The notes under the pieces were generated by a model. That model saw only the letters and a program-made list of their open reading frames with translations, searched no databases and had not been told where the DNA came from. Below are positions 1 to 61,397 of a stretch of 64,000 bases of DNA, in pieces; the stretch's first letter is position 1, and every line of letters starts with the position of its first letter. The position numbers were made by a program, and so were the translations under genes. This DNA comes from Pseudomonadota bacterium (GTDB lineage: Bacteria; Desulfobacterota; Binatia; UBA12015), in contig SXLG01000013.1 in the NCBI GenBank assembly GCA_005777805.1, positions 976-64,975 of the forward strand, read 5' to 3'.

Positions 1-892
1 CGGCGGTGCGCTGACTCTGCGCTGCCTCGAGTCGGTGTACGCAAGCCGTAGCGTCGTGCCAGAGGTCGTGCTGGTCGACAACGCCTCGCGCGCCCCGGTG
101 CTCGACGCTGCCAAGCAACAGTTCCCTGCCCTGACGACGATCCGCAACCCGACCAACCTCGGCTACGCCGGCGGCAACAACATCGGCATCCGCCATCTCC
201 TCGAGCGCGGTGTCGAAGCCGTGCTGGTGCTGAACAACGACGCGCAACTCGCCCCCGAGGCGCTGGCGACGATGCTCGCTGCGGCGCGGGAGGCCGGGGA
301 GATCGCCGCGGTGGGGGGACTGATCCTCGAGCCGCGCATGCCGGGGCAACGCGATCGCATCTGGATGGCGTGGGGGCGTGTCACCTGGCGGCAGAGCCTG
401 GTCGGATTGCCCGGCCGAGGCGAGCCCGATGGGCCCCGCTGGCGCGGCCGGCGCGATGCCGAGTGGGTTTCGGGAGCAGCCCTGCTCTTGACACGGCGCG
501 GGCTCGAGCGGGTCGGTCTCTTCGACGAGGAGTTCTTTGCTTACCTCGAAGAGGTCGATTGGTGCGCCCGGGCCCGCGCCGCCGGTCTGCGCGTGGTCTG
601 GGCCGGCGACGCCGTGGTCGAACACCGCGGCGAAGCGAGCTCGGGCGGAGGGTCCTACATCAGTCGCAAGCAATATCTGGTGGCGCGCAACGCGGTGCTC
701 TTCGCGCGCCGCCATGGGTCGCTGGGCCAGAGACTGCGGTTCTTCACTTTCTTCTTCGGCTCGCTGCCCTTGCAATGGCTTCGGCGCTGGCCGCGAGGTG
801 AGGCCGCCGGCGTGTGGCTCAAGCTGCGTGGGGTGTGCGACGCGCTGCGGGGCCGCTCCTTGCCGCGGGCAGCGCTGGGGATCGACGCGTGA
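1..892 (+). CDS. GT2 family glycosyltransferase (5' end lies outside the window)
   Basis: Frame open from base 2 (..GGALTLRCLESVYASRSVVPEVVLVDNAS..). Has the DxD-containing GT-A motifs VVLVDNAS and LVLNNDA. C-terminal region typical of rhamnosyl/GT2 enzymes. Stop TGA at 890-892. Confidence 0.8.
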   Translation, partial: GGALTLRCLESVYASRSVVPEVVLVDNASRAPVLDAAKQQFPALTTIRNPTNLGYAGGNNIGIRHLLERGVEAVLVLNNDAQLAPEALATMLAAAREAGEIAAVGGLILEPRMPGQRDRIWMAWGRVTWRQSLVGLPGRGEPDGPRWRGRRDAEWVSGAALLLTRRGLERVGLFDEEFFAYLEEVDWCARARAAGLRVVWAGDAVVEHRGEASSGGGSYISRKQYLVARNAVLFARRHGSLGQRLRFFTFFFGSLPLQWLRRWPRGEAAGVWLKLRGVCDALRGRSLPRAALGIDA

Positions 893-2307
893 GTGCGGGG
901 GCGAGCCGGCTGGCCCGCGGTGGTGGCCTTTCGTTCGCCACCGTTCTCGTCGAGAAGGTCGGTTCGCTACTCGTGGTGTTGCTGCTGGCGCGGCTGCTGC
1001 CGGTCGCGGTCTACGGCGAATATGCCTTCGTCATCGCCTATCTCGGGATTTTTCAGATTGTCGCCGATGCGGGCCTCGAGACGGTTCTGGTGCAGCGGCT
1101 TGCCTCGGAGCCGGGCCGGCGCGAATTCTGGTTCCGCGGCGGGCTGGGCCTGCGGTTCGCGACGGCATCGGTGGCGGCACTCCTCGCAGTCGGGTTCGTG
1201 CCGTGGGCGGGTGGCACGGACGGGCTGCGGGCACCGGTCATGGCCGCAGCGGGTTTGCTGCTTGTGGCACAGCCGGTGGCGCGGGCTCTTCTGCGCACCG
1301 TCGGGGCGTTTCGCGGCGTGTTCCTGGCGGCACTCCTTTCTGCGAGCGTCGGCGTGATCGCGCCGGTCGTTGTCGCGCGGCAGGGTGGGTCGCTGGCGGG
1401 CGTGCTCGGCTGGGTCTCGTTCGGCCCGGTCGTGGGTCTGCTCGTGGCCGTCTGGCTGGTGGGCCGCCACCAGCGCGTGAGCCCCGTCTTCGAGTTTGAC
1501 GCTTGGCGGTCGTTGCTGGCCGAGTCTTGGCCGGTCGCGGCGAATCTGCTCGTCGTGGTGGCGGCGTTGCGGGTGGTTCCGCTCCTGCTGATGCGCACGG
1601 CCGGCCCATCCGCGGTTGGGTTCTTCACTTCGGCGGCGCGCATCGTGGAGGCCACCAACCTGGTGGCCGAGGCCGCGCTGCTGGTGCTCTACCCATCGCT
1701 GGTACGGAGGATCGCCGCCGGCCGGGCCGAGGGTGCCGAACTCGCACTGCTCACGGCGCGACTGCTCGCGACGGTTCAGATTGCGGTGGCGCTGGTGCTG
1801 TCGATCTCTGGTCGCGACTTGATGGGTCTTCTCTTCGGCGAGACCTTCGCGGCGTCCGGTCCGGTGCTCTCGATACTAGCTCTGACGATTCCCTTCTCGG
1901 CGCTCGGCACCCTCTACGTGAGCCTGCTCGTGGCGGTCGGCCGCCAGCGGCTGCTCCTCGGGCTGAACGCTCTCGCGGCAGTCGGCCAGATCCTCCTGCA
2001 ACTGGTGCTCGTGCCGCGTTACGGGTCGGTCGGTGCAGCGGCCGGTATCGTCGCTGGCGCGGTGATCAATCACGCCGTCCTGGCCGTGCTGCCGGCGACC
2101 CGGCCATGGATCTTGCCCTGCGTGCGTGCGGCGTTGGGTCCCGTCGCACTGGCGGCGGCGTTGGTGGGTGCGGCAACACTGCTGGGAGCCGGCTCGGGCA
2201 TCGGCACCGCTGCCTTTCTAGTGCTTGCGTTCGTGGTCACGAGCATTTTGACCGGTGCCGTACGCCCCGCGGACTTCCGGCGCCTTGCGGCGCTGCACGG
2301 CGCTTGA
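889..2307 (+). CDS. Polysaccharide/oligosaccharide flippase (Wzx-like, MOP/PST superfamily)
   Basis: GTG start at 889 overlaps the upstream TGA (GTGA). About 12 predicted TM helices. N-terminal signature LVEKVGSLLVVLLLARLLPVAVYGEYAFVIAYLGIFQIVADAGLETVLVQRLA is typical of the polysaccharide biosynthesis protein family. Confidence 0.75.
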   Translation: MSAGASRLARGGGLSFATVLVEKVGSLLVVLLLARLLPVAVYGEYAFVIAYLGIFQIVADAGLETVLVQRLASEPGRREFWFRGGLGLRFATASVAALLAVGFVPWAGGTDGLRAPVMAAAGLLLVAQPVARALLRTVGAFRGVFLAALLSASVGVIAPVVVARQGGSLAGVLGWVSFGPVVGLLVAVWLVGRHQRVSPVFEFDAWRSLLAESWPVAANLLVVVAALRVVPLLLMRTAGPSAVGFFTSAARIVEATNLVAEAALLVLYPSLVRRIAAGRAEGAELALLTARLLATVQIAVALVLSISGRDLMGLLFGETFAASGPVLSILALTIPFSALGTLYVSLLVAVGRQRLLLGLNALAAVGQILLQLVLVPRYGSVGAAAGIVAGAVINHAVLAVLPATRPWILPCVRAALGPVALAAALVGAATLLGAGSGIGTAAFLVLAFVVTSILTGAVRPADFRRLAALHGA

Positions 2308-2644: not shown

Positions 2645-3808
2645 ATGAAGCTTCTGATGCTGAACGAGCGCGACGTCGCGCATCCGCTTGCCGGCGGCGT
2701 CGAAGTCCATCTCGAGGAGGTCGCCAGTCGGCTCGCGTCGCAGCACGCGATCGAGACCACCGTTCTCTGTTGCGGTTTCCCCGGCGCCCCAGCCGAGGAG
2801 GAACGCCGGGGGATCCGCTTCCGGCGGATCGGCAACCGCTACAGCTATTACGGCCTGCTGCCTCTGCACGCCCGTGCTGCGGCGGCGCGGCTTGGGCCCG
2901 ATCTCGTGGTCGAGAACCTCTCGCGGCTGCTCTTCTTCTCGCGTCTCTATCTGCCGCGGGTGCCGCGCCTTGGCCTCGTGCACCAACTCTTCGGCCTTGG
3001 CGCCTTTCGGCAACTCGGGTTTCCGCTCGCACCCTGGGTCGTCGCCAGCGAGGCTCTGCTGCCGCTTGCCTACGCCGATTGCCCCTTCGTCGCGGTGTCC
3101 CCCAGCACGCGCGAGGATCTGGTCCGTCGCGGCATCGCGGCCGAGCGGATCCGCGTCGTCCTGGGCGGCATCGATCACGGCCGCTACCGGCCCGATCCGG
3201 CGGTGGCGATCGATCCGGATCTGGTCGTCTTCCTCGGCCGGCTCGAAGTCCACAAGGGCATTGATCTTTTGCTCGATGCGTGGCACGCGGTGCGCGGCGC
3301 AAGGCCCGGTGCCCGGCTGGTCATCATCGGCACGGGCACGGCGGCGACTCGCATGCGCAGCCGTGCGGCGAGCCGTCACCACGGCGAGACCGTGCGTTTC
3401 CTCGGTTTCGTGCCCGACGACGAGAAAGTTTCCTGGCTCCGGCGGGCCGCCGTCGTCGTGCAGCCGAGTCACAAGGAAGGATTTGGATTGACCGTTCTCG
3501 AGGCCAACGCCTGTGGAACGCCGGTGGTGGCGAGCGACGTGCCGGGTCTGCGCGATTCCGTTCGCCACGACCAGACAGGCTTGCTCGTGCCGGTCGGCGA
3601 CGTGGTCGCTTTCGCGCGGGCGCTGGTGCGGTTGCTCGAGGATCCCGCGCTGCGCACGCAGCTCGGCACGGCGGGTGCGGTCTGGTCGCAGGCTTTCTCC
3701 TGGGATGCCGTGAGTGCCGCCGTGGCCGAGATTTGCCGTGCGGCGGCCGAGCGCCGACCGCTGCCCGAGACGCGCGATTTCCCCCCACAGGCGGAGCCGG
3801 CATCGTGA
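2645..3808 (+). CDS. GT4 family glycosyltransferase
   Basis: N-terminal MKLLMLNE..HPLAGGVEVHLEE and C-terminal EGFGLTVLEANACGTPVVASDVPGLRDSV (E-x7-E/GT1-GT4 motif). Confidence 0.8.
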   Translation: MKLLMLNERDVAHPLAGGVEVHLEEVASRLASQHAIETTVLCCGFPGAPAEEERRGIRFRRIGNRYSYYGLLPLHARAAAARLGPDLVVENLSRLLFFSRLYLPRVPRLGLVHQLFGLGAFRQLGFPLAPWVVASEALLPLAYADCPFVAVSPSTREDLVRRGIAAERIRVVLGGIDHGRYRPDPAVAIDPDLVVFLGRLEVHKGIDLLLDAWHAVRGARPGARLVIIGTGTAATRMRSRAASRHHGETVRFLGFVPDDEKVSWLRRAAVVVQPSHKEGFGLTVLEANACGTPVVASDVPGLRDSVRHDQTGLLVPVGDVVAFARALVRLLEDPALRTQLGTAGAVWSQAFSWDAVSAAVAEICRAAAERRPLPETRDFPPQAEPAS

Positions 3809-6789
3809 TCCGCCGCTCCGGCCCGGTGGCGAGGGGTGCGACCCTGCTGGTCGCTCTCGCCGCCGCCACTCTCTACGTCGGGTTCGCCGACTACGGCTTC
3901 AATCTCGATGACGAGGGCACCGTTCTATACCAGATTCTGCGCACCGCGCGCGGCGAGCGACCCTATCTCGACTTTCACACCGGTTACACGCCGGCGGGCT
4001 TCTACCTCAACGCCGCACTCTTCGATCTCTTCGGCGTGTCCGTGCGGCCGCTCCGACTCCTGCTCGCCGCTGTCAATACCGCTTCGGTGGTGATGATCCT
4101 GCGCCTGGCTCTGCGCCTGGCGCCACCGCTGGAGGCATCGCTCGCCGCCCTGTGCTGGGGACTCTTCCTGCCGTTCTTTGCGGGACAATTCGCGTCGTTC
4201 AATATTCCGTATCCGGCCTGGTACGCGACACTCGGCTGGCTCATGACCGAGTGGGCGTGCGTGCGGGCGGCCGAGGCTGCGCCGCACGTGGCGCGCTCGC
4301 GGGGTTGGATCCTGGTGGCCGGAGTGCTGGCCGGGCTCACCTTCTCGTTCAAGCCGAACACCGGAGTGATGGCGCTCGGCGCCGTGGTGCTGGCACGGCT
4401 GGCTACGGCGCCGCCGCTTCGTGGCCGGCTCGGCTCTCTGCTCGAAGGTCTGGTGCTTGGGATCGCCGTCCTCGGAGTGCCGGCGGTGCTCGCCTTCGAC
4501 CTCGCCACGAAACAATTTGCTTTATTGGGCCTTCCCGCGCTGGTCTTCCTCGTGGGCCTGGCATTGCGGGCGCGGCGGCTGCGGCGGCAGGGGAGCGACC
4601 GTCCGGTGGGGGCGGGCATTCTCGATCTGGTCGTGGTCGTCGTGGGCTTTGGTGCTCCCGTCGCGACCTGGCTCGGTCTCTTCCTGCCCCAGCTCGGATG
4701 GGCCGGGTTCGCGCGCGAGGTGTTGCTGCTCGGGGCGGGTGTCGAGGAGATCTACCTCCTCTACTTCCCGGATCTGAGCGCGTGGAGTGCGGCCGGCTTG
4801 CTCGTGCTCGGCTTTGTGGTCGCGCTGCCGTGGGTGATGGCTCGCGGCTGGCTTGGCGTGCGTGGCGCGATCGGGCTGCTCGGCGTGTCCGCTGCTCTCG
4901 GCATCGGCGCGCTCGCGGTCTTCGGTCTCGCCCCCGAAGGTCTCTTGCTCTCGGTCGGCATGCAGATCGAGAACCTGAGCTATTTTGTGGTGCCGCTGGT
5001 CCTCGTGGTGGCTGTGCTGATCTGGTTCGGACGCGCCGGCCGCCGCGACGAGGAGGCGGGCCGCGTGCTCGGGCTGCTCGGCGTGGCGCTGGCCTTCGGC
5101 GTGCTGCACTTTCTCCAGCTCTTCCCGCGCATAGACTTTATGCATGTCGTGATCAGCATGCCCTCGGCGCTGGTGGTGGCCGCGGGCGTGCTCTGGCAGG
5201 CCGAGCGCTGGGCCGTCGAGACGCTCGGCGCCGCCGGGATCGAGTCGCGGGTCGGCCGGGCGCGCCTGGTGCGGCTGGTCGCGGCGGCACCGATCGTCGT
5301 GGTTCTGCTGGCGCGCCTCGGTCCCTTCGTCGAGGCACGGTTTGACCTCGCCGGGGGCGTGCCCCATTTGCGCGAGCTGACGCCGATGGAGTTCCCGGCG
5401 CTCGCGGTCGGACTCGAGGCCGACCGCGACCACGACCTGCGCGAGCTGCGCGAGGTCGGCCGCTTCGTCGGCTCGCGGACCTCACCGGACGAGCCGATAT
5501 TTGCCTTTCCAGCGCTCGGGATCGTGCCCTTCATGACCGATCGCATAACCCCCGTGCCGCATGATTACTTCTTCGCGGGCCGGCCCTCGCACGCCGACGA
5601 GGCCGTGATGCGCGCGCAGATCGAGGCGGCGCGGCCGGCGTTGATCGTCACGCTCAACGATCGCCTGGGCTACTTCTCGGCGGCGCCGGCGTACTATTTC
5701 ATCCTGCGCGACTACTTCGAGCGCGGCTATCAGTTGGTCCGCCGGATCGGACGCTTCGATGTGCTGGCGCGCCGCGACCTGGTGGCGAACGGGCGCTTCG
5801 TGCCGGAGCCGGCCGGCGCCGCGTGGCGTGCTGCCGGCGAGGGCTCGGCCGGACGACGCCGCGAGGTGGTGCTCGTCACCGATCGGCTGGCGGCTCTCGG
5901 GAGTGCCGCCGAGCTCGCGTCAAGCTCCGAGCTGCTCGGCGATGTCGATCGCGAAAATCGCGGCTCGCTGATCCGGGCGGCCGTTGCGATCGCAGGGCGC
6001 ACGCCGGGGGGGATCGGTGCGGTGGCGGATGTCATGGCGCCGCGCGGGCGCGCCCGACTGCTCTTCGTGCGCACCCTCGGCGAGTACGCCGGCGCCGCAG
6101 CGCTGCCCTGGCTCGAGGGCGTTTTCCTCGAGTCGCCCGACGCGCGCCTGCGCTGGGAGGCCGCCCGCTCCATCAACTATATTCTCGCGCGTGGACTGGC
6201 GAGCCGATTCGATCTGCTCGATGCGCCGGCCCCCGACGCTTCACCCTTCGATTTGCCCGCGGGCCTCCAGCCCGAGCGCACGACGGCCCTGGTCGCGGAT
6301 TTCGAGGAACGCCAGCGAATCGGGCCGCTGGCCGCACTCGCCGCCGCCGATGCCGGGCGGCGCGACCTGGCACCGCGGCTCGACCATTTTGCGAGCGAGC
6401 GCGAGACTACGTGGTGGCGGATGCTTGCCGCCTGGGCGCTGCTGCGACTCGGGCAGGACGAACATGCGCGCACCTTCTACGAGGCGATCGATTCCGGCAC
6501 GCTCGGCGGCCAGTACGTGCCCTCGATCCTGCTCGATCCGGCACTGACCGAGCCCGTTACGGCAAGCCGACTGGTCGCGGCGATGCTTGTCACAGGCAGT
6601 GCCGAGGGCCGTGAGACGGCGGCCTGGATGGCGCCCTATCTGGTTGTGCCGGTGCCGGAGCCAGCCTTGCGTGCCGCGCTTGCCGACCCCGAGCCGGGCG
6701 TGCAGCGGGCCGCCCGCTGGGCGCTCGACGAGATCGCTCGCCGAGAGGGGACGGCGGGCCGCGTGCATGATAGGGGGGCCGGCTCGTGA
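3805..6789 (+). CDS. GT-C fold (PMT/ArnT-like, GT39/GT83-like) membrane glycosyltransferase fused to C-terminal HEAT (PBS-lyase-type) repeats
   Basis: GTG at 3805 overlaps the GT4 stop (GTGA). The 5' part of the track ORF (3280-3804) overlaps GT4 and is non-coding. At least 12 TM helices. DE motif in the first loop (FNLDDEGTVLYQILRTARGERPYLDF), paralogous to the 58162-60336 protein. C-terminal third has HEAT-like repeats (PDARLRWEAARSINYILARG; EPGVQRAARWALDEIARR). Confidence 0.6.
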   Translation: MIRRSGPVARGATLLVALAAATLYVGFADYGFNLDDEGTVLYQILRTARGERPYLDFHTGYTPAGFYLNAALFDLFGVSVRPLRLLLAAVNTASVVMILRLALRLAPPLEASLAALCWGLFLPFFAGQFASFNIPYPAWYATLGWLMTEWACVRAAEAAPHVARSRGWILVAGVLAGLTFSFKPNTGVMALGAVVLARLATAPPLRGRLGSLLEGLVLGIAVLGVPAVLAFDLATKQFALLGLPALVFLVGLALRARRLRRQGSDRPVGAGILDLVVVVVGFGAPVATWLGLFLPQLGWAGFAREVLLLGAGVEEIYLLYFPDLSAWSAAGLLVLGFVVALPWVMARGWLGVRGAIGLLGVSAALGIGALAVFGLAPEGLLLSVGMQIENLSYFVVPLVLVVAVLIWFGRAGRRDEEAGRVLGLLGVALAFGVLHFLQLFPRIDFMHVVISMPSALVVAAGVLWQAERWAVETLGAAGIESRVGRARLVRLVAAAPIVVVLLARLGPFVEARFDLAGGVPHLRELTPMEFPALAVGLEADRDHDLRELREVGRFVGSRTSPDEPIFAFPALGIVPFMTDRITPVPHDYFFAGRPSHADEAVMRAQIEAARPALIVTLNDRLGYFSAAPAYYFILRDYFERGYQLVRRIGRFDVLARRDLVANGRFVPEPAGAAWRAAGEGSAGRRREVVLVTDRLAALGSAAELASSSELLGDVDRENRGSLIRAAVAIAGRTPGGIGAVADVMAPRGRARLLFVRTLGEYAGAAALPWLEGVFLESPDARLRWEAARSINYILARGLASRFDLLDAPAPDASPFDLPAGLQPERTTALVADFEERQRIGPLAALAAADAGRRDLAPRLDHFASERETTWWRMLAAWALLRLGQDEHARTFYEAIDSGTLGGQYVPSILLDPALTEPVTASRLVAAMLVTGSAEGRETAAWMAPYLVVPVPEPALRAALADPEPGVQRAARWALDEIARREGTAGRVHDRGAGS

Positions 6790-7625
6790 CCACCGCGGGC
6801 AATGATCCGGACGTCGTCGGCCGCAACCCCGTCGATGCGCCGGCCGGGTACACCGGCGAACGCCTGGCGGCGGACGACCCGCGCTTCCGGCCGGACCTGG
6901 CGCGCCATCTTGCCGCCTACGACCTGGTTGGTCCTCTGGTCGCCGGCCAGCGCGTACTCGAAGCCGGTTGCGGCGAGGGCTACGGGGCGGCGATCCTCGC
7001 GCGTCACGCCGCGCACGTGGTGGGTGTCGATTACGACGAAACAGCGATCGGCCTGGCGCAGCTCCGGCATTCTGCCGCGCAGGTGGAGTTTCGCGCGATC
7101 GACCTGCGCGAGCTCGCCGCGCACGCGCCGGGCACCTTCGACGCAGTGACGAACTTCCAGGTCCTCGAACATCTCGCCGATCCGACGCCTTTCCTGAGCG
7201 CCGCGGCGGCCTGTTTGCGCCCCGGGGGACGGCTGATTCTGACCACACCGAACCGGCTCGCCAGCGTCTCCGAGAACCCCTTTCACGTCCACGAGTACGT
7301 CGCCGACGAATTGGCTGAGCTGGTCGGGCGCTTCTTTGCGCGGGTCGAACTGCACGGCATCGTCGGCACCGAGCGGGTCTACGCCTTCGAGGCGGCGCGC
7401 GGTGCCCGCGTGCGGCGCATCCTGCGATTCGATCCGCTGGGCCTGCGCCGTCTTCTGCCGCGCGGCGTCGTCGAGTTCGCGTTCTCGCGGCTGGCGTTGA
7501 TGGTGCGCAGCCAGGTGGCCCGCGACAGCGCCGAGGTCGTCGCGCTGGAGCCCGGCGATTTCTCGATCGCCGCTGCCGAGCCGCCGCAGTTCCTGGATCT
7601 TCTGGTCATCGCCCACCGGGACTGA
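6786..7625 (+). CDS. Class I SAM-dependent methyltransferase
   Basis: GTG start overlaps the upstream stop (GTGA). Motif I VLEAGCGEGYGAAIL. Post-I acidic VDYD. Motif II/III VTNFQVLEHLADPTPFLSAAAACLRPGGRLILTTPN. Confidence 0.75.
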   Translation: MTTAGNDPDVVGRNPVDAPAGYTGERLAADDPRFRPDLARHLAAYDLVGPLVAGQRVLEAGCGEGYGAAILARHAAHVVGVDYDETAIGLAQLRHSAAQVEFRAIDLRELAAHAPGTFDAVTNFQVLEHLADPTPFLSAAAACLRPGGRLILTTPNRLASVSENPFHVHEYVADELAELVGRFFARVELHGIVGTERVYAFEAARGARVRRILRFDPLGLRRLLPRGVVEFAFSRLALMVRSQVARDSAEVVALEPGDFSIAAAEPPQFLDLLVIAHRD

Positions 7626-9133: not shown

Positions 9134-10696
9134 ATGGGCGCGAGCGGGAACGGCCAGGGGTTGGCCCCCTTGACGCTCAGCGTGGTGATGCCCGTCTACA
9201 ACGAGCGCGCCACGATTCGTGACATCCTTTGTCGCGTCGCCCGCCGCACCGAGGTCGACGAGCTGATCATCGTCGACGATTGTTCGAGTGACGGCACTTC
9301 CGACGTGCTGGCGACCGAGGCCGCAGACGGTTGGCCCTGTCTTGGCGGGCTTCGCCCGGGCGGGCCGCCGCGCGTGCTCTTGCTGCGTCACGAGGTGAAC
9401 CAGGGCAAGGGCGCAGCACTGCGTACGGGCTTTGCTGCCGTCACCGGCGACATCGTGCTCACGCAGGACGCCGACCTCGAATATGACCCGGCGGACTACC
9501 CGAAGCTGCTGGCGCCGATCCTCGATGGCCGCGCTGACGCCGTCTACGGCAGCCGGTTTGCCGGCTATCCGCGCCGCGTGCTGATGTTCTGGCACACGGT
9601 GGGGAACAAGCTTCTCACGACCCTCTCCAACATCCTCTGTAATTTGAACCTGACCGATATGGAAACCGGTTACAAGGCGATGCGGCGCGAGATGGTTCAG
9701 GCGATGGTGCTGCGTTCCAACCGTTTCGGCATCGAGCCGGAGATCACCGCCCGGCTCGCCCGGCTCCAGGCCCGGATCTACGAGGTGCCGATTTCCTACG
9801 CCGGCCGCTCCTACGTCGAGGGCAAGAAGATCGGCTGGAAGGATGCCATCTCGGCGGTCTGGACCATGCTGCGTTGCGCGCTGATCGACGACCGCGAGAC
9901 CGTCGATCCCCTGCACGCCACGCTGCGCCGCATGGCCGTGCTCGATCGCTACAACGCTTTCCTCTTCGAGCAGATCGCGCCCTTCGTCGGCCAGCGCGTG
10001 CTCGAGGTGGGGGCGGGCACGGGCACGTTGACCCGCTTCCTGCGCTCCCGTGATCGGGTACGGGCGACCGACGTCGATGCGCAGTACGTCCATCTCCTCG
10101 AGCGCCGCTTCGAGCACGATGGCAACGTCGCGGTATCCGCCTACGATCTGGCCGGCGAGCCCTCCGCGGACGTCGCCACGCAGCGCTACGACACGATCGT
10201 CTGTCTGAACGTTCTCGAGCATATTGCCGACGATGAGCGCGCGCTGCTGCGGCTGCACGACTTGCTCGAGCCGGCCGGTCAGCTCATCCTGCTCGTCCCG
10301 GCGCACCAGGCCCTCTTTGGCACCATGGACGAGGCGATCGGGCACTTCCGGCGCTACGAGCGAGCGTCGTTGCTGCGTCAGCTCCGCGAGGCGGGCTACC
10401 ATGTGCAGGCGAACTTTTTCGTCAACGCCACCTCGGTGGTGGGCTGGTGGCTCAACGGGCGTGTGCTGGGCCGCCGTGGCGTCCCGGGCGTGCAAGCCCG
10501 GCTGGCGAACCGCCTGGTGCCGCTCTTCCGCATCGAGCGCAAGCTGCGCTTGCCTTTCGGGATCTCGCTGGTTGCCGTGGCGCGGCGGCCCGCGGATGTC
10601 CTGGCTGCGGCTGCTTCGGGCGAGACGGCTGCGGCGGTGGCAGAGGCCGCAACCCCGGTGGACGCGACGGGTGTGGCCTCGCGCGGCCCGGGCTGA
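9134..10696 (+). CDS. Fusion protein: N-terminal GT2 polyprenyl-phosphate sugar synthase (DPM synthase-like), C-terminal class I SAM methyltransferase
   Basis: N-term LSVVMPVYNERATIRDIL..IIVDDCSSDGT..QDADLEYDP (DPM1/GtrB-like). C-term VLEVGAGTGTLTRFL ... CLNVLEHIADDERALLRLHDLLEPAGQLILLVPAH (MTase motifs I-III). Confidence 0.75.
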   Translation: MGASGNGQGLAPLTLSVVMPVYNERATIRDILCRVARRTEVDELIIVDDCSSDGTSDVLATEAADGWPCLGGLRPGGPPRVLLLRHEVNQGKGAALRTGFAAVTGDIVLTQDADLEYDPADYPKLLAPILDGRADAVYGSRFAGYPRRVLMFWHTVGNKLLTTLSNILCNLNLTDMETGYKAMRREMVQAMVLRSNRFGIEPEITARLARLQARIYEVPISYAGRSYVEGKKIGWKDAISAVWTMLRCALIDDRETVDPLHATLRRMAVLDRYNAFLFEQIAPFVGQRVLEVGAGTGTLTRFLRSRDRVRATDVDAQYVHLLERRFEHDGNVAVSAYDLAGEPSADVATQRYDTIVCLNVLEHIADDERALLRLHDLLEPAGQLILLVPAHQALFGTMDEAIGHFRRYERASLLRQLREAGYHVQANFFVNATSVVGWWLNGRVLGRRGVPGVQARLANRLVPLFRIERKLRLPFGISLVAVARRPADVLAAAASGETAAAVAEAATPVDATGVASRGPG

Positions 10697-10995
10697 TTTC
10701 CGCTTGATCTCGCCCGCCCGTGTGGCCGCGCCAGCGACAAGAGCCCGGCTTCGCCACGCGATACTGCGGCCTCTGACGGCGGCGATGGCGCCTCGGACCT
10801 GGACCAGCGACCGCTCAGGGGTGGCCGGAATCATCGTCTTGTCATGCTGTGCCGAGACGCTGGGTGGGCGCGGGCCAATGACAGCGCGAGGGGCGGCCGC
10901 GAGGTCCTGGGGCTTGCCGGGATCGGACCCTCGATGAGCAGGCATCATGACCCGCACCGGCGTGCCTCTCAGGCCAGCGGGGCGGAGGCCGGAGT

Positions 10996-11209
10996 GGACG
11001 AGCGATGATCCGGGTCGTCCTGGTGACGGCGGCGACGCTGGCGGGGACGTCGTGGGTGGCGATCTCGGTGGTCGAGGCCGATCGGCTCGCGGTCGCGCCG
11101 GCGGACGAGCGATGATCCGGGTCTTCCTGGCGACGGCGGCGGCGCTGGCCGGGACGTCGTGGGTGGCGATCACGCTGGTCGAGGCCAATCGGTTCGCGGT
11201 TGCGCCGGC
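10996..11209 (+). repeat. Two tandem copies of a 107 bp unit (about 90 % identical) spanning the start of the downstream membrane-protein gene
   Basis: Direct reading. Copy 1 is about 10996-11102 and copy 2 about 11103-11209. Both contain ATGATCCGGGTC..TGGGTGGCGATC..GTCGAGGCC..CGG(C/T)TCGCGGT(C/T)GCGCCGGC. Confidence 0.7.
11005..11115 (+). CDS. Possible 36-codon upstream ORF (MIRVVLVTAATLAGTSWVAISVVEADRLAVAPADER) that copies the N-terminus of the downstream membrane protein
   Basis: Created by the tandem duplication. GGAGG lies 15 nt upstream of its ATG. Its TGA overlaps the ATG of the main gene (ATGA). No separate homology evidence; it could be a duplication scar. Confidence 0.3.
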   Translation: MIRVVLVTAATLAGTSWVAISVVEADRLAVAPADER

Positions 11210-13175
11210 ACTTGCCGCGGGTGCGCTGACCGCGCTGTTCGCGGGCGCATGGGGCTCACGCCTGCATCTGCCGCGGGGCGGACTTTTGCTGGTCGGGGCG
11301 CTCGGCGGTGCGCTCTCGATGTTGCCGCCGATCGACACGACGCTTCTCTCGCAGGATGCGAGTCTGCACCGCGGCGCCGGCCTCTGGCTGGCACGCGAGG
11401 GCACCCTCGCGGTGGCCGACCCGGCCCTGGCGGCCCTGAATGCCGACGAGCGAGTGGCGCTCTTCGGCGGCGGCACGATCAGCGCGCGCCGCATGTCGCT
11501 TGTCCGACTGCCGGGTGGACTCGTGCTGCCCGATCTGGATACCGAGGTGGCCTACCCGAGCTTCTCGCATCTGCTCATGACCTGGGTCGGGCTAGCGGCG
11601 CGGGTCGCCGGCGCCGGTGCGGTTGGCTTCCTCGGCCCCCTGCTGGCCGCCCTCGCGCTCTGGGCCGTCGGCGTGACGGTGGCACTTGGCGTGGGCGGCC
11701 GGTCAGGTGCCGGGTGGGGGCTCGCGGCGGAGATCCTGCTCGCTCTGCTCCTGCCCGAGCACTGGTTCGGGCGCTTCCTGATGAGCGAGATCCTCGGGCA
11801 GGCGCTGGTGTGGTGTGCCGTTGCCGCCGCAGCGATCGCGGCCGAAGAGGCGCGCCGTCCGCTCGGCCGGCGCGCGGCGCGGGGAGTCGCGGGACTTCTG
11901 TGCGGCGCCTGTCTCGGGCTTGCGGGTTTCGCGCGCCTCGAGATGGTGTGGATCTTCGTGCCGGCTCTGCTGCTGGCGCGTGCCTTGCTGCCGGCCGGCC
12001 GCCGTCTGCTGCCGCCGCTCGCTCTCGCTGTTTTTCTCTTCGCCGCCGGACAGGCGGCGTTGCATCTCACGGCGATTCCAACCGACTACGGCAATCATAT
12101 TGTCCGACAATTGCTCGAGGCTTACGCGCGCCTGGTCTGGCTCGTCATCGCGCTCTGCCGTGGCGACGGCCATCTGGCGGGAACCCTCCTGCGGCTGGTC
12201 CTCCCGCTGGTAGCCTTCGGACTCCTTGCCGCCGGGTTCGTTTGGGTGCGTGCGGTCGAGCGTCGGCGGCCGGGGCAGGGCATCCGTGCAGCTTGTGCGC
12301 TTGCGGGGGGGCTGTGGCTGGCGCTTCTCTACCGCAAGGGAGTGACCCCCGGTTGGCCAGCGGCACGTGCGCTGGTGCTCTTCGTGCCGCCCGCACTGCT
12401 CGGAGCGCTGGCGCTGGCTGGCCGCAGGGCGTTGCCGCGGGGTGGGCTCGAAATCGCTCTCTGCCTGTTGGCGCTCGACCAGATCGCGGGCGGTCGCGTC
12501 GCCGACGAGCAGATCTGGGCGGCGCGCCGGCTCGTCCCGGTGGTGCTGCCCCTGGTGGTGGTGCTGGCCGTGCGCGGGGTCGGTGGATCCTGGCTTGATG
12601 GAAGGCGACCCCGCTCTGCCTGGCGGCTTGGGCTGGCGCGGGGCCTGCTGGTGGTGGCGCTGTTCGCTGCTGTGCGCATGGTGTGGCCCGTGCTGGGACG
12701 GCAATTGCAGGGCGGGGCCGCGGACCGCGTGCGCGAACTCGCCGCCGAGTTGCCGCCGGACGCTCTGGTCCTGCTGGCCCAACCGCTCGACTGGACGCAT
12801 CTTGCGGCCGCACTCTGGCTCGGCGAAGGCCGGCGCACGCTCGTGCTGCGCCAAGCCGGCGTCGCGGGCCACGGCGCGGCACTCCGGCGCTATCTCGATA
12901 CCGCGCCCGCGGCCGGGGTGTGGGTCGTGACCGGAGCGGCGGGCAGCGCGGCGGCCCCCGCGAGCGGCGACGAGGGCCTCTCTGGGTTCGAGGGATTGAC
13001 ACTCTCGGCGCCGTCGGCAGTCCGGCGCTGGCGCGCGGACTTTCTCGAGGTCACCCGCGGCCGGCGGCCACACGGACTGGTCGAGCGCGAAATCGCACTC
13101 CGCCTGCGCCGCGTCGGCCCGCCGCCGGCGCTACAGCCCCAGGGCGCGAGCACCGGGCGCCTTGGCCGCGACTGA
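11112..13175 (+). CDS. Polytopic integral membrane protein (possible GT-C-like glycosyltransferase), about 687 aa
   Basis: ATG at 11112, in frame with the long track ORF whose upstream part is non-coding. More than 12 hydrophobic helices, with a C-terminal soluble region. No confident motif assignment. Confidence 0.5.
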   Translation: MIRVFLATAAALAGTSWVAITLVEANRFAVAPALAAGALTALFAGAWGSRLHLPRGGLLLVGALGGALSMLPPIDTTLLSQDASLHRGAGLWLAREGTLAVADPALAALNADERVALFGGGTISARRMSLVRLPGGLVLPDLDTEVAYPSFSHLLMTWVGLAARVAGAGAVGFLGPLLAALALWAVGVTVALGVGGRSGAGWGLAAEILLALLLPEHWFGRFLMSEILGQALVWCAVAAAAIAAEEARRPLGRRAARGVAGLLCGACLGLAGFARLEMVWIFVPALLLARALLPAGRRLLPPLALAVFLFAAGQAALHLTAIPTDYGNHIVRQLLEAYARLVWLVIALCRGDGHLAGTLLRLVLPLVAFGLLAAGFVWVRAVERRRPGQGIRAACALAGGLWLALLYRKGVTPGWPAARALVLFVPPALLGALALAGRRALPRGGLEIALCLLALDQIAGGRVADEQIWAARRLVPVVLPLVVVLAVRGVGGSWLDGRRPRSAWRLGLARGLLVVALFAAVRMVWPVLGRQLQGGAADRVRELAAELPPDALVLLAQPLDWTHLAAALWLGEGRRTLVLRQAGVAGHGAALRRYLDTAPAAGVWVVTGAAGSAAAPASGDEGLSGFEGLTLSAPSAVRRWRADFLEVTRGRRPHGLVEREIALRLRRVGPPPALQPQGASTGRLGRD

Positions 13176-13280: not shown

Positions 13281-14996
13281 CTATCCCCAGAGTTCGTTGC
13301 GCAGCACGCGTCCTGGGCGCGCGGCGGTGGGTGTGCCGTGGCGCATCAATATCTGGCCATTGACGAGGGTGGCGTCGTAGCCGCGGCCGGTTTGAGTCAG
13401 GTGGGGCGCGCCTCCGGGCATCTCGTGCCGTAGTTCGGGCAGGCCGATGTCGATACGGTCCAGGTCGATCACGTTGAGGTCGGCGTGGGCACCGTGGCGG
13501 ATCACGCCGCGGTCGCGCAGACCCCAGAGGCTCGCCGGATCGAAGGTGAGCTTGCGGATCGCCTGCTCGATCGTGAGGAGGCGGCGCTGGCGGACCCACC
13601 AGGAGAGCAGGAAGGTCGAGTAGCTCGCGTCCGAGGTCTGGGTGGTGTGGGCGCCCGAGTCGCCGAGGCCGATGCCGGTGAGAGGGTGCGACAGCATCGC
13701 CCCGACCGCGTCGAGGTCGGGATTGAAGAGTGGCACGATGAAGAAACCGCGCAGGTCGGTGCGGAGGATGTGCTCGAGGATGAGTTCGCCAAAGTTGCGC
13801 CCTTCGCGGCGCGCCCGCGCGCCGATGCTTTGCTCGGGCGTGAGTTCGTACGCCGCGGCACCTTCGCCCTCGAGAGCGAAAACCTGATCGACCGTCGCCA
13901 TGCCGCCGAGCACGGCGCCGTTCTCGTTGCGTACGCTCTCGAGCAGGCGCTGGCGGAGGTCGGCGTCGCGCAATGCCGCGCGGATCTCGTCCACGGGCCT
14001 CGAGGCCAGCTCACCCGCCGCGGGGAAGATCCAGAGCGGCGAGACCGAGATGCCGAAACCCATGAGCAGCCCGACGCTGCGCACCGCTACCTGGGGCACG
14101 ATCCGTGCGCCACGAAGCTGGGCCTCCTCGGTGGCGCGCAAAGCGTCGCGCCATGCATCCGGATAGGCCAGGCACTGAACCAGGCCGACGCTGAGCGGCC
14201 GAGCGGACTCGAGGCTGATCGGCAGCATCCACTCGTACTCGCGGCGCCAACCCTCGGCATCCTCGCCGGCACCACCGAGCGGGATGATCTCCAGCACACC
14301 CGTGCCCGTCGCGGCGAGGCCGCTGGCGAGAGCGTCGAGTTCGCGCCGGTCGGCGAAGGTGCCGGGGACGGGATCGCCCGAGGGCGTGCGGTGCATGGTG
14401 GTGCGTCCGGTGGAGACGCCGAGCGCCCCGGCGCGCATCGCCTCGACGACCGCCGTGCGCATGGCCACGAGTTCGTCGTCGTTGGCGGGTGCCGCCGTGG
14501 CGCCACGCTGGCCCATGGCGTGGATGCGCAGCGGAGCATGGCTCAGGTGCGCGCCGACGTTGAGGCCGAGGGGGCGCGCATCGAGGGAGTCGAGGTATTC
14601 GGGAAAACTCTGCCAGTTCCAGCCGATGCCGGCCGCCATCGCGCTGACCGGGATGTCCTCGACCCCCTGCATGAGGAACATCAGGTAGTCGCGATCTTCC
14701 GGCCGGCAGGGGGCGAAACCCACCCCGCAGTTGCCGACCACGACCGAGGTCACGCCATGCTGATTTGACGGCGAGCCGAGTGGATCCCAGATGAGCTGCG
14801 CGTCGAGATGGGTGTGGATGTCGACGAAACCTGGCGTGACGATGCGGTCGCGGGCGTCGATCTCCTCGCGGGCCGGGCCGTCGCAGCGTCCGATGCGTGT
14901 GATCCGCCCGCCCTCGATCGCGATGTCGGCCCGGTAGGCGGGACCTCCCGTGCCATCGACGATCGTACCGCCCCGAATCACCACATCTGCTGCCAT
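13281..14996 (-). CDS. D-aminoacylase / N-acyl-D-amino-acid deacylase family amidohydrolase
   Basis: Start MAADVVIRGGTIVDGTGG, preceded by GGGAGG. Contains DARDRIVTPGFVDIHTHLD (metal-binding HxH). About 571 aa. The upstream part of the 796 aa track ORF is low-complexity and non-coding. Confidence 0.75.
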   Translation of the reverse strand: MAADVVIRGGTIVDGTGGPAYRADIAIEGGRITRIGRCDGPAREEIDARDRIVTPGFVDIHTHLDAQLIWDPLGSPSNQHGVTSVVVGNCGVGFAPCRPEDRDYLMFLMQGVEDIPVSAMAAGIGWNWQSFPEYLDSLDARPLGLNVGAHLSHAPLRIHAMGQRGATAAPANDDELVAMRTAVVEAMRAGALGVSTGRTTMHRTPSGDPVPGTFADRRELDALASGLAATGTGVLEIIPLGGAGEDAEGWRREYEWMLPISLESARPLSVGLVQCLAYPDAWRDALRATEEAQLRGARIVPQVAVRSVGLLMGFGISVSPLWIFPAAGELASRPVDEIRAALRDADLRQRLLESVRNENGAVLGGMATVDQVFALEGEGAAAYELTPEQSIGARARREGRNFGELILEHILRTDLRGFFIVPLFNPDLDAVGAMLSHPLTGIGLGDSGAHTTQTSDASYSTFLLSWWVRQRRLLTIEQAIRKLTFDPASLWGLRDRGVIRHGAHADLNVIDLDRIDIGLPELRHEMPGGAPHLTQTGRGYDATLVNGQILMRHGTPTAARPGRVLRNELWG

Positions 14997-25762: not shown

Positions 25763-27283
25763 TCAAGCGGCCTGCGCGGGCGGTGCATGTGCTTGCGCCT
25801 GCGCGGCCGCCGACGCGCGGCGGCCCTTGAGCGACTTCCATGCCATGCGCAGCGTGACCTTGATGCCCTCGACTCCGAGGTAGGGGAAGGTCAGCGGGAT
25901 CAGCAGCACGTAGAGAATGAGGGCCAGCCGCTTCATGCGGTGGCGGATGATCCAGCGGATGGCGGGCTTCAGGAACTCGGGGCTCTTGGCGTAGACCGGC
26001 GTGATCTTGGCGAGGGTCTCGGCGAGTTCCTTGTGGGGGTGCCGCAGGATCGACTCGTGGTGGTAGCCCGAGATGCCCTGGCGCACTTTCTCCTCGCCCT
26101 CGGCGTCAAGGTAGCCGAGCCGGACCGAGTGTTCGTACATCTTGGTCCGCGGGAAGGGGTAGAACACGTAGGCCGAGGATTGAGTCGGCTTGATCTTGTC
26201 GACCATCTCGAGCGTCTTGAACATCTGCTCGGGCTGTTCGCCCGGGTTGCCGTAGATGCAGGACGCCTGGAGTCCGATGCCGCCGTCGAGGATGGTGCGC
26301 GCCGCCTTGTAGATCAGCTCGTCGGTCATCGGGCGGTCCATGAACTGCCGGCGCACCGTCTCGTCGCCCGAGTCGACGCCCATGAAGATCGTGTGGCAGT
26401 TGGCGGCCTTCATCGCCGCGACCAGTTTGGGCCGGATCGTCGTCGGGTAGCCGAAGCAGTACCAGGGCAGGTTGATTTCCTTGCGGTACGCCTCGCAGAA
26501 CTCCTCGACCCACTTCGGATTGGTCGTGAAGTTGTCGTCGTGGACGGAGACGTAGTGCGGGTCGTACTTCTGGAGGTTCTGCTTGAGTTCCGCGATCACG
26601 TTCGGGATGGAGCGCTTGCGCAGGAAATCGCCCGACCCCTTGAAGATCTCGCGCTGGTAGTGGATGTTGCAGAAGGTGCACTTGAAGGGGCAGCCCCGTC
26701 CGGTGAAGACCTCGAGGTTGTCCTTGAAGCAGCCGTAATCCCACCAGAGCTGCTTCTCCGGGAAGGGGAAGTTGTCGAGTTCGTTCTGGAGCGGGCCCAT
26801 CGGATTGCGGTGGATGAGCCCATGCTGCTTGACCCAGAGCGTCGGGATGTCGCTGTAATCCTCGCCGCGTGACATGCGCTCGGCCAGTTCGAGGATCGCG
26901 ATCTCGCCCTCGCCGGTGCACACCATGTCGATGTTGGGATCGTTGGTCAGGAGCCACTCGGGCAGGGCCTGGGCATGGTGGCCGCCCATCAGGATCGGCA
27001 CCTCGGGCATCGTCTGCTTGAGCATCTCGGCCATCTTCTTGGCGAAGGGGTAGAGGTTGGTCAGGCAGCCCATCGCGATGAGATCGGGCTTGAAGGCCTT
27101 GGCGCGCTCGAGCATCTCCTGATGGCGGTTCAGCCAGGCGAGCTGTGGGAACTTGATGAAGAGGTTGTCGTCGAGGCCGGGGTCGAAGATCAGGTCGATC
27201 TCGTGGCCGTGGGTCTTGAGCATCGACATGCAGTAGCCAACGCCCAGATTCTCGATCCCCCGGTAGTAGAACAGCACCCGCAT
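25763..27283 (-). CDS. B12-binding domain radical SAM protein (class B)
   Basis: N-terminal B12-binding region (MRVLFYYRGIENLGVGYCMSMLKTHGHEIDLIF). CxxxCxxC-type cluster TGRGCPFKCTFCNIHYQ. Lys/Phe/Tyr/Trp-rich composition and visibly lower GC than its neighbours. Confidence 0.8.
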   Translation of the reverse strand: MRVLFYYRGIENLGVGYCMSMLKTHGHEIDLIFDPGLDDNLFIKFPQLAWLNRHQEMLERAKAFKPDLIAMGCLTNLYPFAKKMAEMLKQTMPEVPILMGGHHAQALPEWLLTNDPNIDMVCTGEGEIAILELAERMSRGEDYSDIPTLWVKQHGLIHRNPMGPLQNELDNFPFPEKQLWWDYGCFKDNLEVFTGRGCPFKCTFCNIHYQREIFKGSGDFLRKRSIPNVIAELKQNLQKYDPHYVSVHDDNFTTNPKWVEEFCEAYRKEINLPWYCFGYPTTIRPKLVAAMKAANCHTIFMGVDSGDETVRRQFMDRPMTDELIYKAARTILDGGIGLQASCIYGNPGEQPEQMFKTLEMVDKIKPTQSSAYVFYPFPRTKMYEHSVRLGYLDAEGEEKVRQGISGYHHESILRHPHKELAETLAKITPVYAKSPEFLKPAIRWIIRHRMKRLALILYVLLIPLTFPYLGVEGIKVTLRMAWKSLKGRRASAAAQAQAHAPPAQAA

Positions 27284-27509: not shown

Positions 27510-28244
27510 TCAGGCCGCGTCGCCGCCGAAGCCCGTGCCGCGCTCCCAGAACCCGAGGCGCATCTTCCACGGCGTCACCATCGAGCGGGCGATCTCGGCC
27601 TTGGAGATCTTGGACGCGCCCGCGCGGCGGTCGGTGAAGACGATCGGGACCTCGACGCCGCCGAGGCCGGCCTTTACGACCCGGTACTTGAGCTCGATCA
27701 GAAACGAGTAGCCGCTGGTCCCGATCGCCGCGAGGCCGATGCGATGCAGCGCGCGCCGGGTCAGGCACTGAAAACCGCTGGTGCAGTCGCGAAAGGGCAG
27801 GCCGGTGATGGTGCGCGCGTAGGTGTTGGCGATGGTGCTCAGGATGAGGCGCGAGAGTTCCCAGTTCACGACGCTGATGCCGTTCAGATAGCGCGAGCCG
27901 ATCACCAGGTCGGCTCGCGCTGCGGCCTCGACCAGCGCCGGCAGGTAGCCGGGGTCGTGCGACCAGTCACCGTCCATCGAGATCACGGCGTCGTAGCCCT
28001 GCTCGAGCGCCCAGGTGAAGGCCTCGCGGTAGGCCGTGCCCAGGCCGAGCTTGCCGGGCCGGTGGCGGACGTGCAGGCGGGGCTCCCGCGCGGCGATTTC
28101 ATCGGCGAGCCGGCCCGTGCCGTCGGGCGAGTTGTCGTCGACGATGAGATAATCCGCGCCGACGGGCGAGCCCAGCACCGCCGCGACCAGAGCCTCGAGG
28201 TTGTCGCGCTCGTTGTAGGTGGGCGTGACGACGAGGACGCGCAT
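27510..28244 (-). CDS. GT2 polyprenyl-phosphate hexose synthase (dolichyl-phosphate mannose synthase-like)
   Basis: MRVLVVTPTYNERDNLEALV..YLIVDDNSPDGT..ISMDGDWSHDP (DPM1 family). Confidence 0.8.
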   Translation of the reverse strand: MRVLVVTPTYNERDNLEALVAAVLGSPVGADYLIVDDNSPDGTGRLADEIAAREPRLHVRHRPGKLGLGTAYREAFTWALEQGYDAVISMDGDWSHDPGYLPALVEAAARADLVIGSRYLNGISVVNWELSRLILSTIANTYARTITGLPFRDCTSGFQCLTRRALHRIGLAAIGTSGYSFLIELKYRVVKAGLGGVEVPIVFTDRRAGASKISKAEIARSMVTPWKMRLGFWERGTGFGGDAA

Positions 28245-31488: not shown

Positions 31489-31679
31489 GCGATCGCTCCG
31501 GGCCGAACCCGGGCGCGTGCACGCCGAGACCCGGCCCGCGTCTCGGGGATCGCCGGCGGAGCGGTTCGCGATCTTGTTTGCTCGTGCATTGTGGATCATC
31601 AACGCTGGGGACAGCCTGAGCGATGAGAGCCGCAGCGCCGTGGTGCGAGAGCACGGGCAGAGCGGCCGCGGGGGAGAGT

Positions 31680-40126: not shown

Positions 40127-40140
40127 GACGCTGGCCCCGG

Positions 40141-41262: not shown

Positions 41263-41279
41263 GGCAACGCCGGCGAGGC

Positions 41280-61280: not shown

Positions 61281-61397
61281 CTTGCGTCGATCCTTGGCCG
61301 TGGACGACGGCGCCCGCAAGTCGCGGCGGGGTCGGGCCGGTGCGAATACCGGGGGCCTGAGCGGCAGGGGCGCGCTGGTCTGGTAGAGCCGCTCCAG

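Follow-up and report, generated by a model that had tools for sequence, protein, structure and literature searches.

Why would genes for soluble methyltransferases lie, three times over, directly against genes for large membrane proteins that resemble glycosyltransferases? The question is raised by a 64,000-nucleotide stretch of DNA from a bacterium of the class Binatia (contig SXLG01000013.1 of GenBank assembly GCA_005777805.1, positions 976 to 64,975; hereafter the window), in which the gene of a class I, S-adenosylmethionine (SAM)-dependent methyltransferase (MTase) overlaps that of a polytopic membrane protein at three places. We refer to the methyltransferases as MT1, MT2 and MT3, and to their membrane partners as GTC1, GTC2 and GTC3, after the GT-C class of glycosyltransferases (GTs). 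As detailed below, the window encodes at least four GT-C enzymes of two families, three of which adjoin an MTase gene. Two of the three pairings appear, from comparison with relatives, to have been maintained in evolution, which suggests an undescribed methylation step in the sugar decoration of the cell envelope. Our tentative reading, to which we give slightly less than an even chance, is that each MTase methylates a carrier-linked sugar before it is flipped across the membrane, after which the GT-C encoded beside it would transfer the methylated sugar.

Three gene pairs with overlapping junctions

Because the G+C content of the window is high (about 70%), genes were called with a codon-usage score, followed by a Pfam check (Table 1). 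Reading of the junction sequences bore out the three pairs and the four-nucleotide overlaps reported in a first-pass annotation of this DNA: GTGA for GTC1/MT1 (6786-6789), GTGA for MT2/GTC2 (48805-48802) and TTGA for MT3/GTC3 (60336-60333). The starts that give these overlaps are the longest-open-reading-frame starts as well. They are credible because the alignments of homologues start at the same N-termini and, for pair 1, because independent gene calls in three related loci (L001-L003; loci are given here by L numbers) show the identical four-nucleotide overlap.

The overlaps do not set the pairs apart, as they occur at 8 of the 28 same-strand junctions of the window, including GT4/GTC1 (GTGA), DUF2304/MT2 (ATGA), MBOAT and its next gene, and MsrA/MsrB. 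The overlap is thus the usual operon junction here and gives no argument for the specific stoichiometric partnership that had been read from it. The gene order of the window is itself of modest significance: the probability that at least three of four GT-C genes adjoin one of five MTase genes is about 0.03 under random gene order, and about 0.10 when the glycan genes alone are shuffled. Significance therefore rests on the comparative data and not on the window.

The membrane partners resemble GT-C enzymes of two families

GTC1 and GTC3 both score above the gathering cut-off (26.1 bits) of the Pfam family PMT_2 (PF13231), GTC1 with 35.2 bits and GTC3 marginally with 27.1 bits. The loop motif L[LD]DEG[TY][IV]L, from which the two had been proposed to be paralogues, is present in both, and its D, E and G are invariant or nearly so in both families: in alignments of homologues, D36 is at least 90% conserved and E37 and G38 are invariant in the GTC1 family, and D40 and E41 are invariant in the GTC3 family. 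This acidic D-E motif sits in the first extracytoplasmic loop after the first transmembrane (TM) helix, as PMT_2-type membership requires. BLASTP found nothing significant among GTC1, GTC2 and GTC3, so that profile methods were needed for their comparison. Using hhalign, the GTC1 and GTC3 families align with 99.8% probability (E 6.8e-28, 519 columns) across the membrane domain and the first soluble domain; given the lack of BLASTP similarity, GTC1 and GTC3 are therefore old, distant paralogues.

GTC1 has about 15 TM helices, a periplasmic domain (residues 513-650) and a C-terminal domain of HEAT repeats (approximately 745-985), which are genuine by both Pfam (HEAT_2) and a match to HEAT/alphaRep proteins in the PDB (E 6e-35). 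With its AlphaFold2 model (predicted local distance difference test score, pLDDT, 81.9; predicted template modelling score, pTM, 0.85), Foldseek retrieved AglB, STT3, ArnT and PglB, all at probability 1.00, with a target-normalised TM-score of 0.51 for ArnT. On this model GTC1 has the GT-C fold; for GTC3 the same fold is probable through its profile link to GTC1. The positive-inside rule and the helix parity of the model place the conserved motifs of GTC1 and its whole C-terminal half, as predicted, in the periplasm. Its gene and that of the GT4 are neighbours in L001-L003 and in most loci, and in nine of the loci (L003 5050-11192, L034, L036, L040, L046, L047, L057, L063 and L078) the GTC1/HEAT gene is tandemly duplicated, with two paralogues before MT1.

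GTC2 required a different route. It gave no match in Pfam (even at E 10, and none to YfhO, PF09586), in NCBIfam or among PDB sequences, and hhalign against both GTC1 and GTC3 was negative. A Foldseek search with its AlphaFold2 model (pLDDT 76.8, pTM 0.78) returned GT-C enzymes as 28 of the top 29 PDB matches, among them AftA, STT3, DPY19, PglB, ArnT, EmbB, ALG9/12 and Pmt4; the exception, at rank 5, is 9n9j_I, a translocon entry whose name does not mark it as a GT-C. The GTC2 family aligns by hhalign with the family of a YfhO-like protein encoded further down the same operon (100% probability, E 3.5e-47, 668 columns). That paralogue scores 23 bits against YfhO, below the cut-off of 28.5, and a syntenic gene of 759 codons in L002 carries a precomputed YfhO match. 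An invariant aspartate (D61 in the alignment of homologues) lies in the first loop of GTC2. Profile homology and predicted fold together mark GTC2 as a YfhO-type GT-C. A protein with 80% identity to GTC2 (P0122, 1605 residues) joins the GTC2 homologue to the sulfatase/LtaS-like domain encoded downstream; it is either a true fusion, which would tie the two functions together, or a gene-call read-through.

All three membrane proteins thus appear to be GT-C enzymes, as the first-pass annotation had it (GTC1 and GTC3 by PMT_2 and hhalign, GTC1 also by its model, GTC2 by its model and its link to the YfhO-like family). Their proposed mutual homology holds for GTC1 with GTC3 and fails for GTC2.

The methyltransferases are soluble and of different subfamilies

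Pfam identifies class I MTase domains in MT1 (E 2e-20), MT2 (E 1e-15) and MT3 (E 2.5e-26, Methyltransf_23). Their translations show an intact SAM motif I (VLEAGCGEGYG, VLDVGAGSGF and WLDVGCSTGA in MT1, MT2 and MT3, respectively) and an acidic residue after strand 2 (VGVD, VACD and EGIE). All three are single-domain proteins with no TM segment; being soluble, they are therefore cytoplasmic, where SAM is available. MT3 carries in addition an N-terminal zinc ribbon (CPLC...CAGC).

MT1 is only 27-28% identical to MT2 and to MT3, and MT2 and MT3 are not detectably similar, for which reason we regard the pairs as three separate MTase/GT-C juxtapositions rather than one triplicated module. By sequence comparison the pairs combine two unrelated GT-C families with at least three MTase subfamilies, so that the single recurring module suggested at first does not stand. 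The named NCBIfam MTase equivalogs, including UbiG, MftM and BioC, all scored below their cut-offs (the best was UbiG with MT1, 75 against 103 bits), and we found no characterised homologue for any of the six pair proteins.

Some matches bear on the possibility that the MTases act on nucleotide sugars before these are loaded onto the lipid, leaving the GT2 and the GT-C to carry an already methylated sugar. MT3 shows weak similarity in the PDB (E about 5e-5) to the TylC3-type D-mycarose 3-C-methyltransferase and to dTDP-sugar N-methyltransferases of the DesVI/TylM1 type, its zinc ribbon fits as well, and MT1 matches a D-glucose O-methyltransferase (6uv6, E 2e-7). These matches are weak and of a kind common to class I MTases in general, with UbiG and the methyltransferase PEAMT scoring better for MT1, and no genes for NDP-sugar dehydratases, aminotransferases or epimerases lie beside the pairs in the window. 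We consider this route improbable.

Less probable still, and in our view very unlikely, is that the MTase and the GT-C associate physically, the MTase regulating or methylating its partner or the lipid or protein on which that partner acts. An overlap of stop and start codons, possible as NTGA at 25 of 42 GTC1/MT1 junctions, would suit such a complex, but overlaps are common at unrelated junctions, and by prediction the large domains, including the HEAT repeats, lie in the periplasm, away from the MTase. No MTase/GT-C fusion was found among the approximately 280 GT-C homologues listed. One unverified fusion-like protein (P0328, 1039 residues, retrieved with MT1, from an unrelated low-GC organism) combines a polytopic domain of about 8 TM segments that is GT-C-like in architecture, a 350-residue loop, one further TM segment and a full-length MT1-like domain (34% identity). 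Its N-terminal region matched nothing in Pfam, among PDB sequences or by hhalign and could not be identified as a GT-C; P0328 may be a candidate GT-C-MTase fusion, as a lead only.

Two of the pairings recur in Binatia

Homologues came nearly all from metagenome-assembled genomes of Candidatus Binatia. For pair 1, a scan with one genome per species yielded 77 loci, with 64 evaluable GTC1-family genes or tandem arrays; MTases in the loci were detected with five query sequences only. In 41 of the 64, the gene directly downstream is an MT1 orthologue (E 1e-43 to 1e-146, down to about 30% identity), and in 9 a different class I MTase lies directly upstream. The canonical cluster reads GT2 - Wzx - small GT2 - GT4 - GTC1 (one or two copies) - MT1, followed by an optional GT2-MTase fusion, an optional MT3-like MTase and an optional homologue of unk687, a membrane protein of the window.

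For pair 3, an MT3 orthologue immediately precedes each of the five orthologues closest to GTC3 (85% and about 50% identity; L088-L091 and L118). In the wider GTC3 family, 22 of 54 evaluable genes have an adjacent MTase on the same strand and 7 a divergent one, and six loci hold compact triads in which a GTC3-like gene is followed by an MTase and an AglJ-like GT2.

Pair 2 behaves differently. The triad of a PpgS-like GT2, DUF2304 and MT2 is kept in the window, L005/L089, L091, L118 and L143, and GTC2 homologues follow it in the window, where the operon order is GT2-DUF2304-MT2-GTC2, and in L005. The constant partners of MT2 are thus the GT2 and DUF2304 rather than GTC2, and MT2 belongs primarily with these putative donor-synthase genes. 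A pairing of YfhO with Methyltransf_21 occurs in L002, and in several contigs, as in the window, MT3-GTC3 and GT2-DUF2304-MT2 lie in one supercluster. Adjacency outside this genome is therefore well supported for pair 1 and for the true orthologues of pair 3, and in part for pair 2.

A tentative pathway for methylated envelope sugars

The window probably holds parts of a conserved Binatia envelope-glycan system with several lipid-carrier-dependent, extracytoplasmic glycosylation units. The unusual feature is a soluble cytoplasmic SAM MTase repeatedly attached to such units. From gene identities, folds, the soluble or membrane character of the products and the conservation of the pairs, we infer a methylation substrate, an order of steps, and a donor and an acceptor. 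A small GT2 would load a sugar onto polyprenyl phosphate, with a small membrane protein, a Wzx flippase or both in the unit. The MTase would then methylate the sugar at the cytoplasmic face, most probably on its polyprenyl-phosphate carrier and possibly on the nucleotide-sugar precursor; the methylated lipid-linked sugar would be flipped, and the neighbouring periplasm-facing GT-C would transfer it to a periplasmic acceptor. The large C-terminal domain of the GT-C (HEAT repeats in GTC1, beta-rich in GTC2) may recognise that acceptor.

Methylation of the lipid-linked donor, as the first-pass annotation had suggested, fits the topology, with soluble MTases and GT-C active sites predicted to be periplasmic. 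It agrees, too, with the recurring links of MTases both to GT-C genes and to donor-type GT2 genes resembling polyprenyl-phosphate-sugar synthases, including one fusion; the sugar substrate itself is assigned by context. AglJ/PpgS-like GT2 genes in the same clusters could, by context only, supply the donor of GTC1 and GTC3. The best NCBIfam matches of these GT2s (the gene before DUF2304, the small soluble GT2 and the GT2-MTase fusion) are PpgS, AglJ, Dol-P-hexose transferase and ArnC. We detected no GtrA-type flippase; a Wzx-type protein is present.

The same genes may serve an ordinary methylation of glycans, in which the MTases O-methylate an oligosaccharide or polymer built on undecaprenyl pyrophosphate by cytoplasmic GT2 and GT4 enzymes, decorating or terminating chains in the manner of WsaE, WbdD or AglP, and the adjacency to GT-C genes is an inherited operon order with no coupling at the donor level. 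This is a real possibility, if probably not the case. The operon of MT1 is long and includes GT2, Wzx and GT4 genes, and the generic overlaps, the many GT-C paralogues lacking an MTase and the weak significance of adjacency within the window (P 0.03-0.10) are all as it would predict. It accounts less readily for different MTase subfamilies lying next to GT-C genes of two unrelated families, in some cases before and in others after them, for compact GT-C-MTase-GT2 triads that exist without other GTs, and for a GT2-DUF2304-MT2 triad that centres on a monosaccharide-carrier synthase and not on chain-building GTs.

Several observations weigh against methylation of the donor. MT1-like domains elsewhere occur in fusions with cytoplasmic GT2, GT4 and Capsule_synth enzymes (P0417, P0353, P0406, P0383 and P0340), an arrangement that suits methylation of a growing chain no less well. 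No MTase was detected at 14 of the 64 GTC1-family arrays, at 25 of the 54 GTC3-family genes, in 4 of the 6 GTC2-family contexts or next to the GT-C gene of the outlier L168, which is labelled Limnocylindrales. The loci were collected through GT-C similarity, so that the counts come with no unbiased background rate, and since almost all the evidence is from one class, shared ancestry inflates them and they are not independent events. The NCBIfam matches of the GT2s are all far below the curated cut-offs; the best match of the GT2 before DUF2304, to PpgS, reaches E 2e-27 but only 96 bits against a cut-off of 370. Finally, we are aware of no biochemical study in which a polyprenyl-monophosphate sugar is methylated, and literature searches focused on methylation found none.

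Taken to its full extent, donor methylation would define a four-component unit: a GT2 with its DUF2304 or Wzx helper, a dedicated MTase that O-methylates the donor before flipping, and a GT-C that accepts this methylated donor specifically. Such units would have arisen several times independently, from different MTase and GT-C families, and would yield a heavily methylated, hydrophobic envelope glycan. In this complete form we regard it as doubtful.

Comparison with known systems

Multi-component transmembrane glycosylation systems (GtrA/GtrB/GtrC, CsbB/GtcA/YfhO, GacI/GacJ/GacK/GacL) combine a cytoplasmic GT-A/GT2 enzyme that makes an undecaprenyl-phosphate (C55-P) sugar, at times aided by a small membrane protein, a flippase of the GtrA or Wzx type and a polytopic GT-C that acts outside the cytoplasm (PMC8035078, PMC7389260); in some variants the membrane protein is separate and Wzx is used (PMC8035078). 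Candidates for these parts in the window are AglJ/PpgS-like GT2s, DUF2304 and Wzx, beside YfhO-type and PMT_2-type GT-Cs, and a GT-C is encoded together with a GT2 both in the GT2-DUF2304-MT2-GTC2 operon and in the GTC3-MTase-GT2 triads. Their described components include no MTase, and the word 'methyl' is absent from the 2021 review (PMC8035078), whereas here an MTase gene stands between the GT2/DUF2304 and GT-C genes or directly beside the GT-C gene.

In the mycobacterial PpgS (Rv3631)/Rv3632/Rv3779 galactosamine pathway, a small soluble GT2 makes polyprenyl-phosphate-GalNAc with the assistance of a small membrane partner, and a GT-C uses the product (PMC3485146). The window similarly has a PpgS-like GT2 followed by a small membrane protein, but differs in the presence of an MTase, in its YfhO-like GT-C and in the distance of the PpgS match from its cut-off. 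Rv3632 presumably belongs to DUF2304, a family for which we know of no function.

The closest logical precedent for tailoring of a donor before transfer by a PMT_2-related GT-C is the ArnC/ArnD/ArnEF/ArnT pathway. There, the formylated aminoarabinose donor Und-P-Ara4FN is deformylated by ArnD on the cytoplasmic face before flipping and transfer by ArnT, which modifies lipid A. The tailoring step is deformylation and not methylation, and no Arn orthologue reaches the NCBIfam cut-offs in our genes.

N-glycosylation by the Agl pathway of Haloferax volcanii involves a SAM methyltransferase (AglP), a mannose-charged dolichol phosphate that is flipped (AglR) and a final transferase (AglS) (PMC3871713). 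AglJ is among the best matches of the window GT2s; the pathway is archaeal, and no coupling of gene pairs has been described in it. It employs AglJ-type GT2s, AglR is Wzx-like and AglS is a GT-C, and the methylation by AglP falls on a hexuronic acid of the dolichol-phosphate-linked glycan rather than on the monosaccharide that serves the GT-C as donor.

Systems of the WsaE/WbdD type modify undecaprenyl-linked glycans by means of MTase domains that are joined to cytoplasmic GTs or cooperate with them; they use Wzm/Wzt ATP-binding cassette (ABC) transporters and have no GT-C partner. The GT2-MTase fusion of the window, which the first-pass annotation had listed and Pfam confirms, recalls this arrangement, as do the fusions of MT1-like domains in P0417 and P0353. 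The window has no other GT-MTase fusion, MT1-MT3 being single-domain proteins, and the ABC genes here (61194-64000) encode half-transporters with ABC_membrane and ABC_tran domains (exporters) rather than Wzm/Wzt.

Two further comparisons concern GTC1 and the polysaccharides. The eukaryotic TMTC1-4 proteins are PMT_2-like GT-Cs with C-terminal TPR repeats, and GTC1 shares with them the order of a PMT_2-type GT-C and an extracytoplasmic alpha-solenoid. This resemblance, in architecture, hints at a protein or polymer acceptor, although the TMTC1-4 repeats are TPR and not HEAT and have no MTase partner. The methylmannose and methylglucose polysaccharides of mycobacteria (MMP/MGLP), to which the locus had been likened, are cytoplasmic, polymethylated products of soluble GTs and MTases made with no lipid carrier or GT-C, whereas the present loci are defined by GT-Cs with Wzx and carrier-type GT2s; the analogy is thus a poor one.

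Searches of the literature on Binatota with methyltransferase and glycosyltransferase, and on GT-C with methyltransferase and polyprenyl, returned nothing relevant. A coupling of methylation to lipid-carrier-dependent GT-C glycosylation is plausible and was not found described in the literature searched; the first-pass annotation, too, knew of no characterised module of this kind.

Other genes of the window

The remaining features are collected in Table 1. The downstream gene set of operon 2 (38801-45891) recurs in L005 and L002.

Table 1. Features of the window discussed in the text (coordinates are window positions)
Feature	Coordinates	Strand	Assignment and context
GT2	35-892	+	Pfam Glycos_transf_2
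Wzx-type flippase	889-2307	+	Pfam Polysacc_synt
GT4 glycosyltransferase	2645-3808	+	Pfam Glycos_transf_1, E 7e-44
GTC1	3805-6789	+	PMT_2-type GT-C; followed by MT1
MT1	6786-7625	+	soluble class I SAM MTase, Methyltransf_11/23
GT2-MTase fusion	9134-10696	+	Pfam; AglJ/ArnC/PpgS-like GT2 domain; downstream of MT1 in many loci
unk687	11112-13175	+	polytopic membrane protein, about 12 TM; no Pfam match
Small soluble GT2	27510-28244	-	AglJ/PpgS-like; homologue between Wzx and GT4 in canonical cluster
MT4	30718-31602	-	fourth stand-alone class I MTase; adjoins GT2 homologue in L001
MBOAT	38801-40144	-	Pfam; operon 2
Unknown, 373 residues	40141-41262	-	operon 2
YfhO-like GT-C	41280-43556	-	Pfam (below cut-off); operon 2
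Sulfatase/LtaS-like	43543-45870	-	Pfam; operon 2, downstream of GTC2
GTC2	45974-48805	-	YfhO-type GT-C; C-terminal beta-rich domains
MT2	48802-49452	-	soluble class I MTase; followed by GTC2
DUF2304 small membrane protein	49449-49874	-	Pfam
PpgS/AglJ-like GT2	49897-50631	-	Pfam
Hexapeptide acyltransferase	50812-51615	-	first gene of operon 2; same place in L005
unk795	54289-56676	+	about 14 TM, 358-residue central loop; kept between MT3-GTC3 and GT2-DUF2304-MT2 blocks in other contigs
GTC3	58162-60336	-	PMT_2-type GT-C; distant GTC1 paralogue
MT3	60333-61280	-	zinc-ribbon class I MTase; followed by GTC3

A fifth MTase, MT4, had been placed beside a GT2; in the window a propeller gene lies between it and the small soluble GT2, and the two are adjacent in L001. 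An MT3-like MTase directly precedes homologues of unk687 in L001, L011, L012, L015, L016, L018 and L030. At the corresponding gap in the window (10697-11111, 415 nucleotides; relatives such as L001 carry the MTase there, at 13544-14305) we found no MTase remnant in the one frame translated. Both unk687 and unk795 were considered as hidden GT-Cs and rejected, as hhalign found no link to the GT-C families; the loop of unk795 shows a faint match to Spermine_synth, which has an MTase-like fold (E 0.016; 'weak' in the L005 orthologue).

The small soluble GT2 adjoins a gene (25763-27283, minus strand) for a B12-binding radical SAM enzyme that is HpnJ/PhpK/HpnR-like and possibly a radical methylase; its base composition (G+C of 0.59 and 0.92 at first and third codon positions) is unlike that of its neighbours, and it may be foreign. 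Directly downstream of GTC3 on the same strand lie MsrA and MsrB (56720-58044, minus strand), which may be co-transcribed with MT3-GTC3. In two other Binatia loci (L007, 1-1161, and L008, 1-1940), the gene of an STT3/AglB-type oligosaccharyltransferase (738-999 residues) adjoins a two-component system, with a GTC3 paralogue about 5 kb away; Binatia may have an N-glycosylation-like oligosaccharyltransferase.

Implications

To our knowledge, all known extracytoplasmic sugar decorations by GT-C enzymes use carrier-linked sugars that are unmodified, deformylated or deacetylated. If the MTases of this locus act on chains as in other glycan clusters, the window would hold an ordinary, MTase-rich polysaccharide cluster. 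If they methylate carrier-linked sugars for the adjacent GT-Cs, as we tentatively propose, the pairs would represent a new route by which methyl sugars are placed beyond the cytoplasm, in surroundings that lack SAM. They would also open a way to the function of dozens of GT-C paralogues that lack annotation in the widespread and uncultured Binatia, and the combination of GT2, MTase and GT-C would serve as a simple genomic signature predicting methylated envelope glycans.

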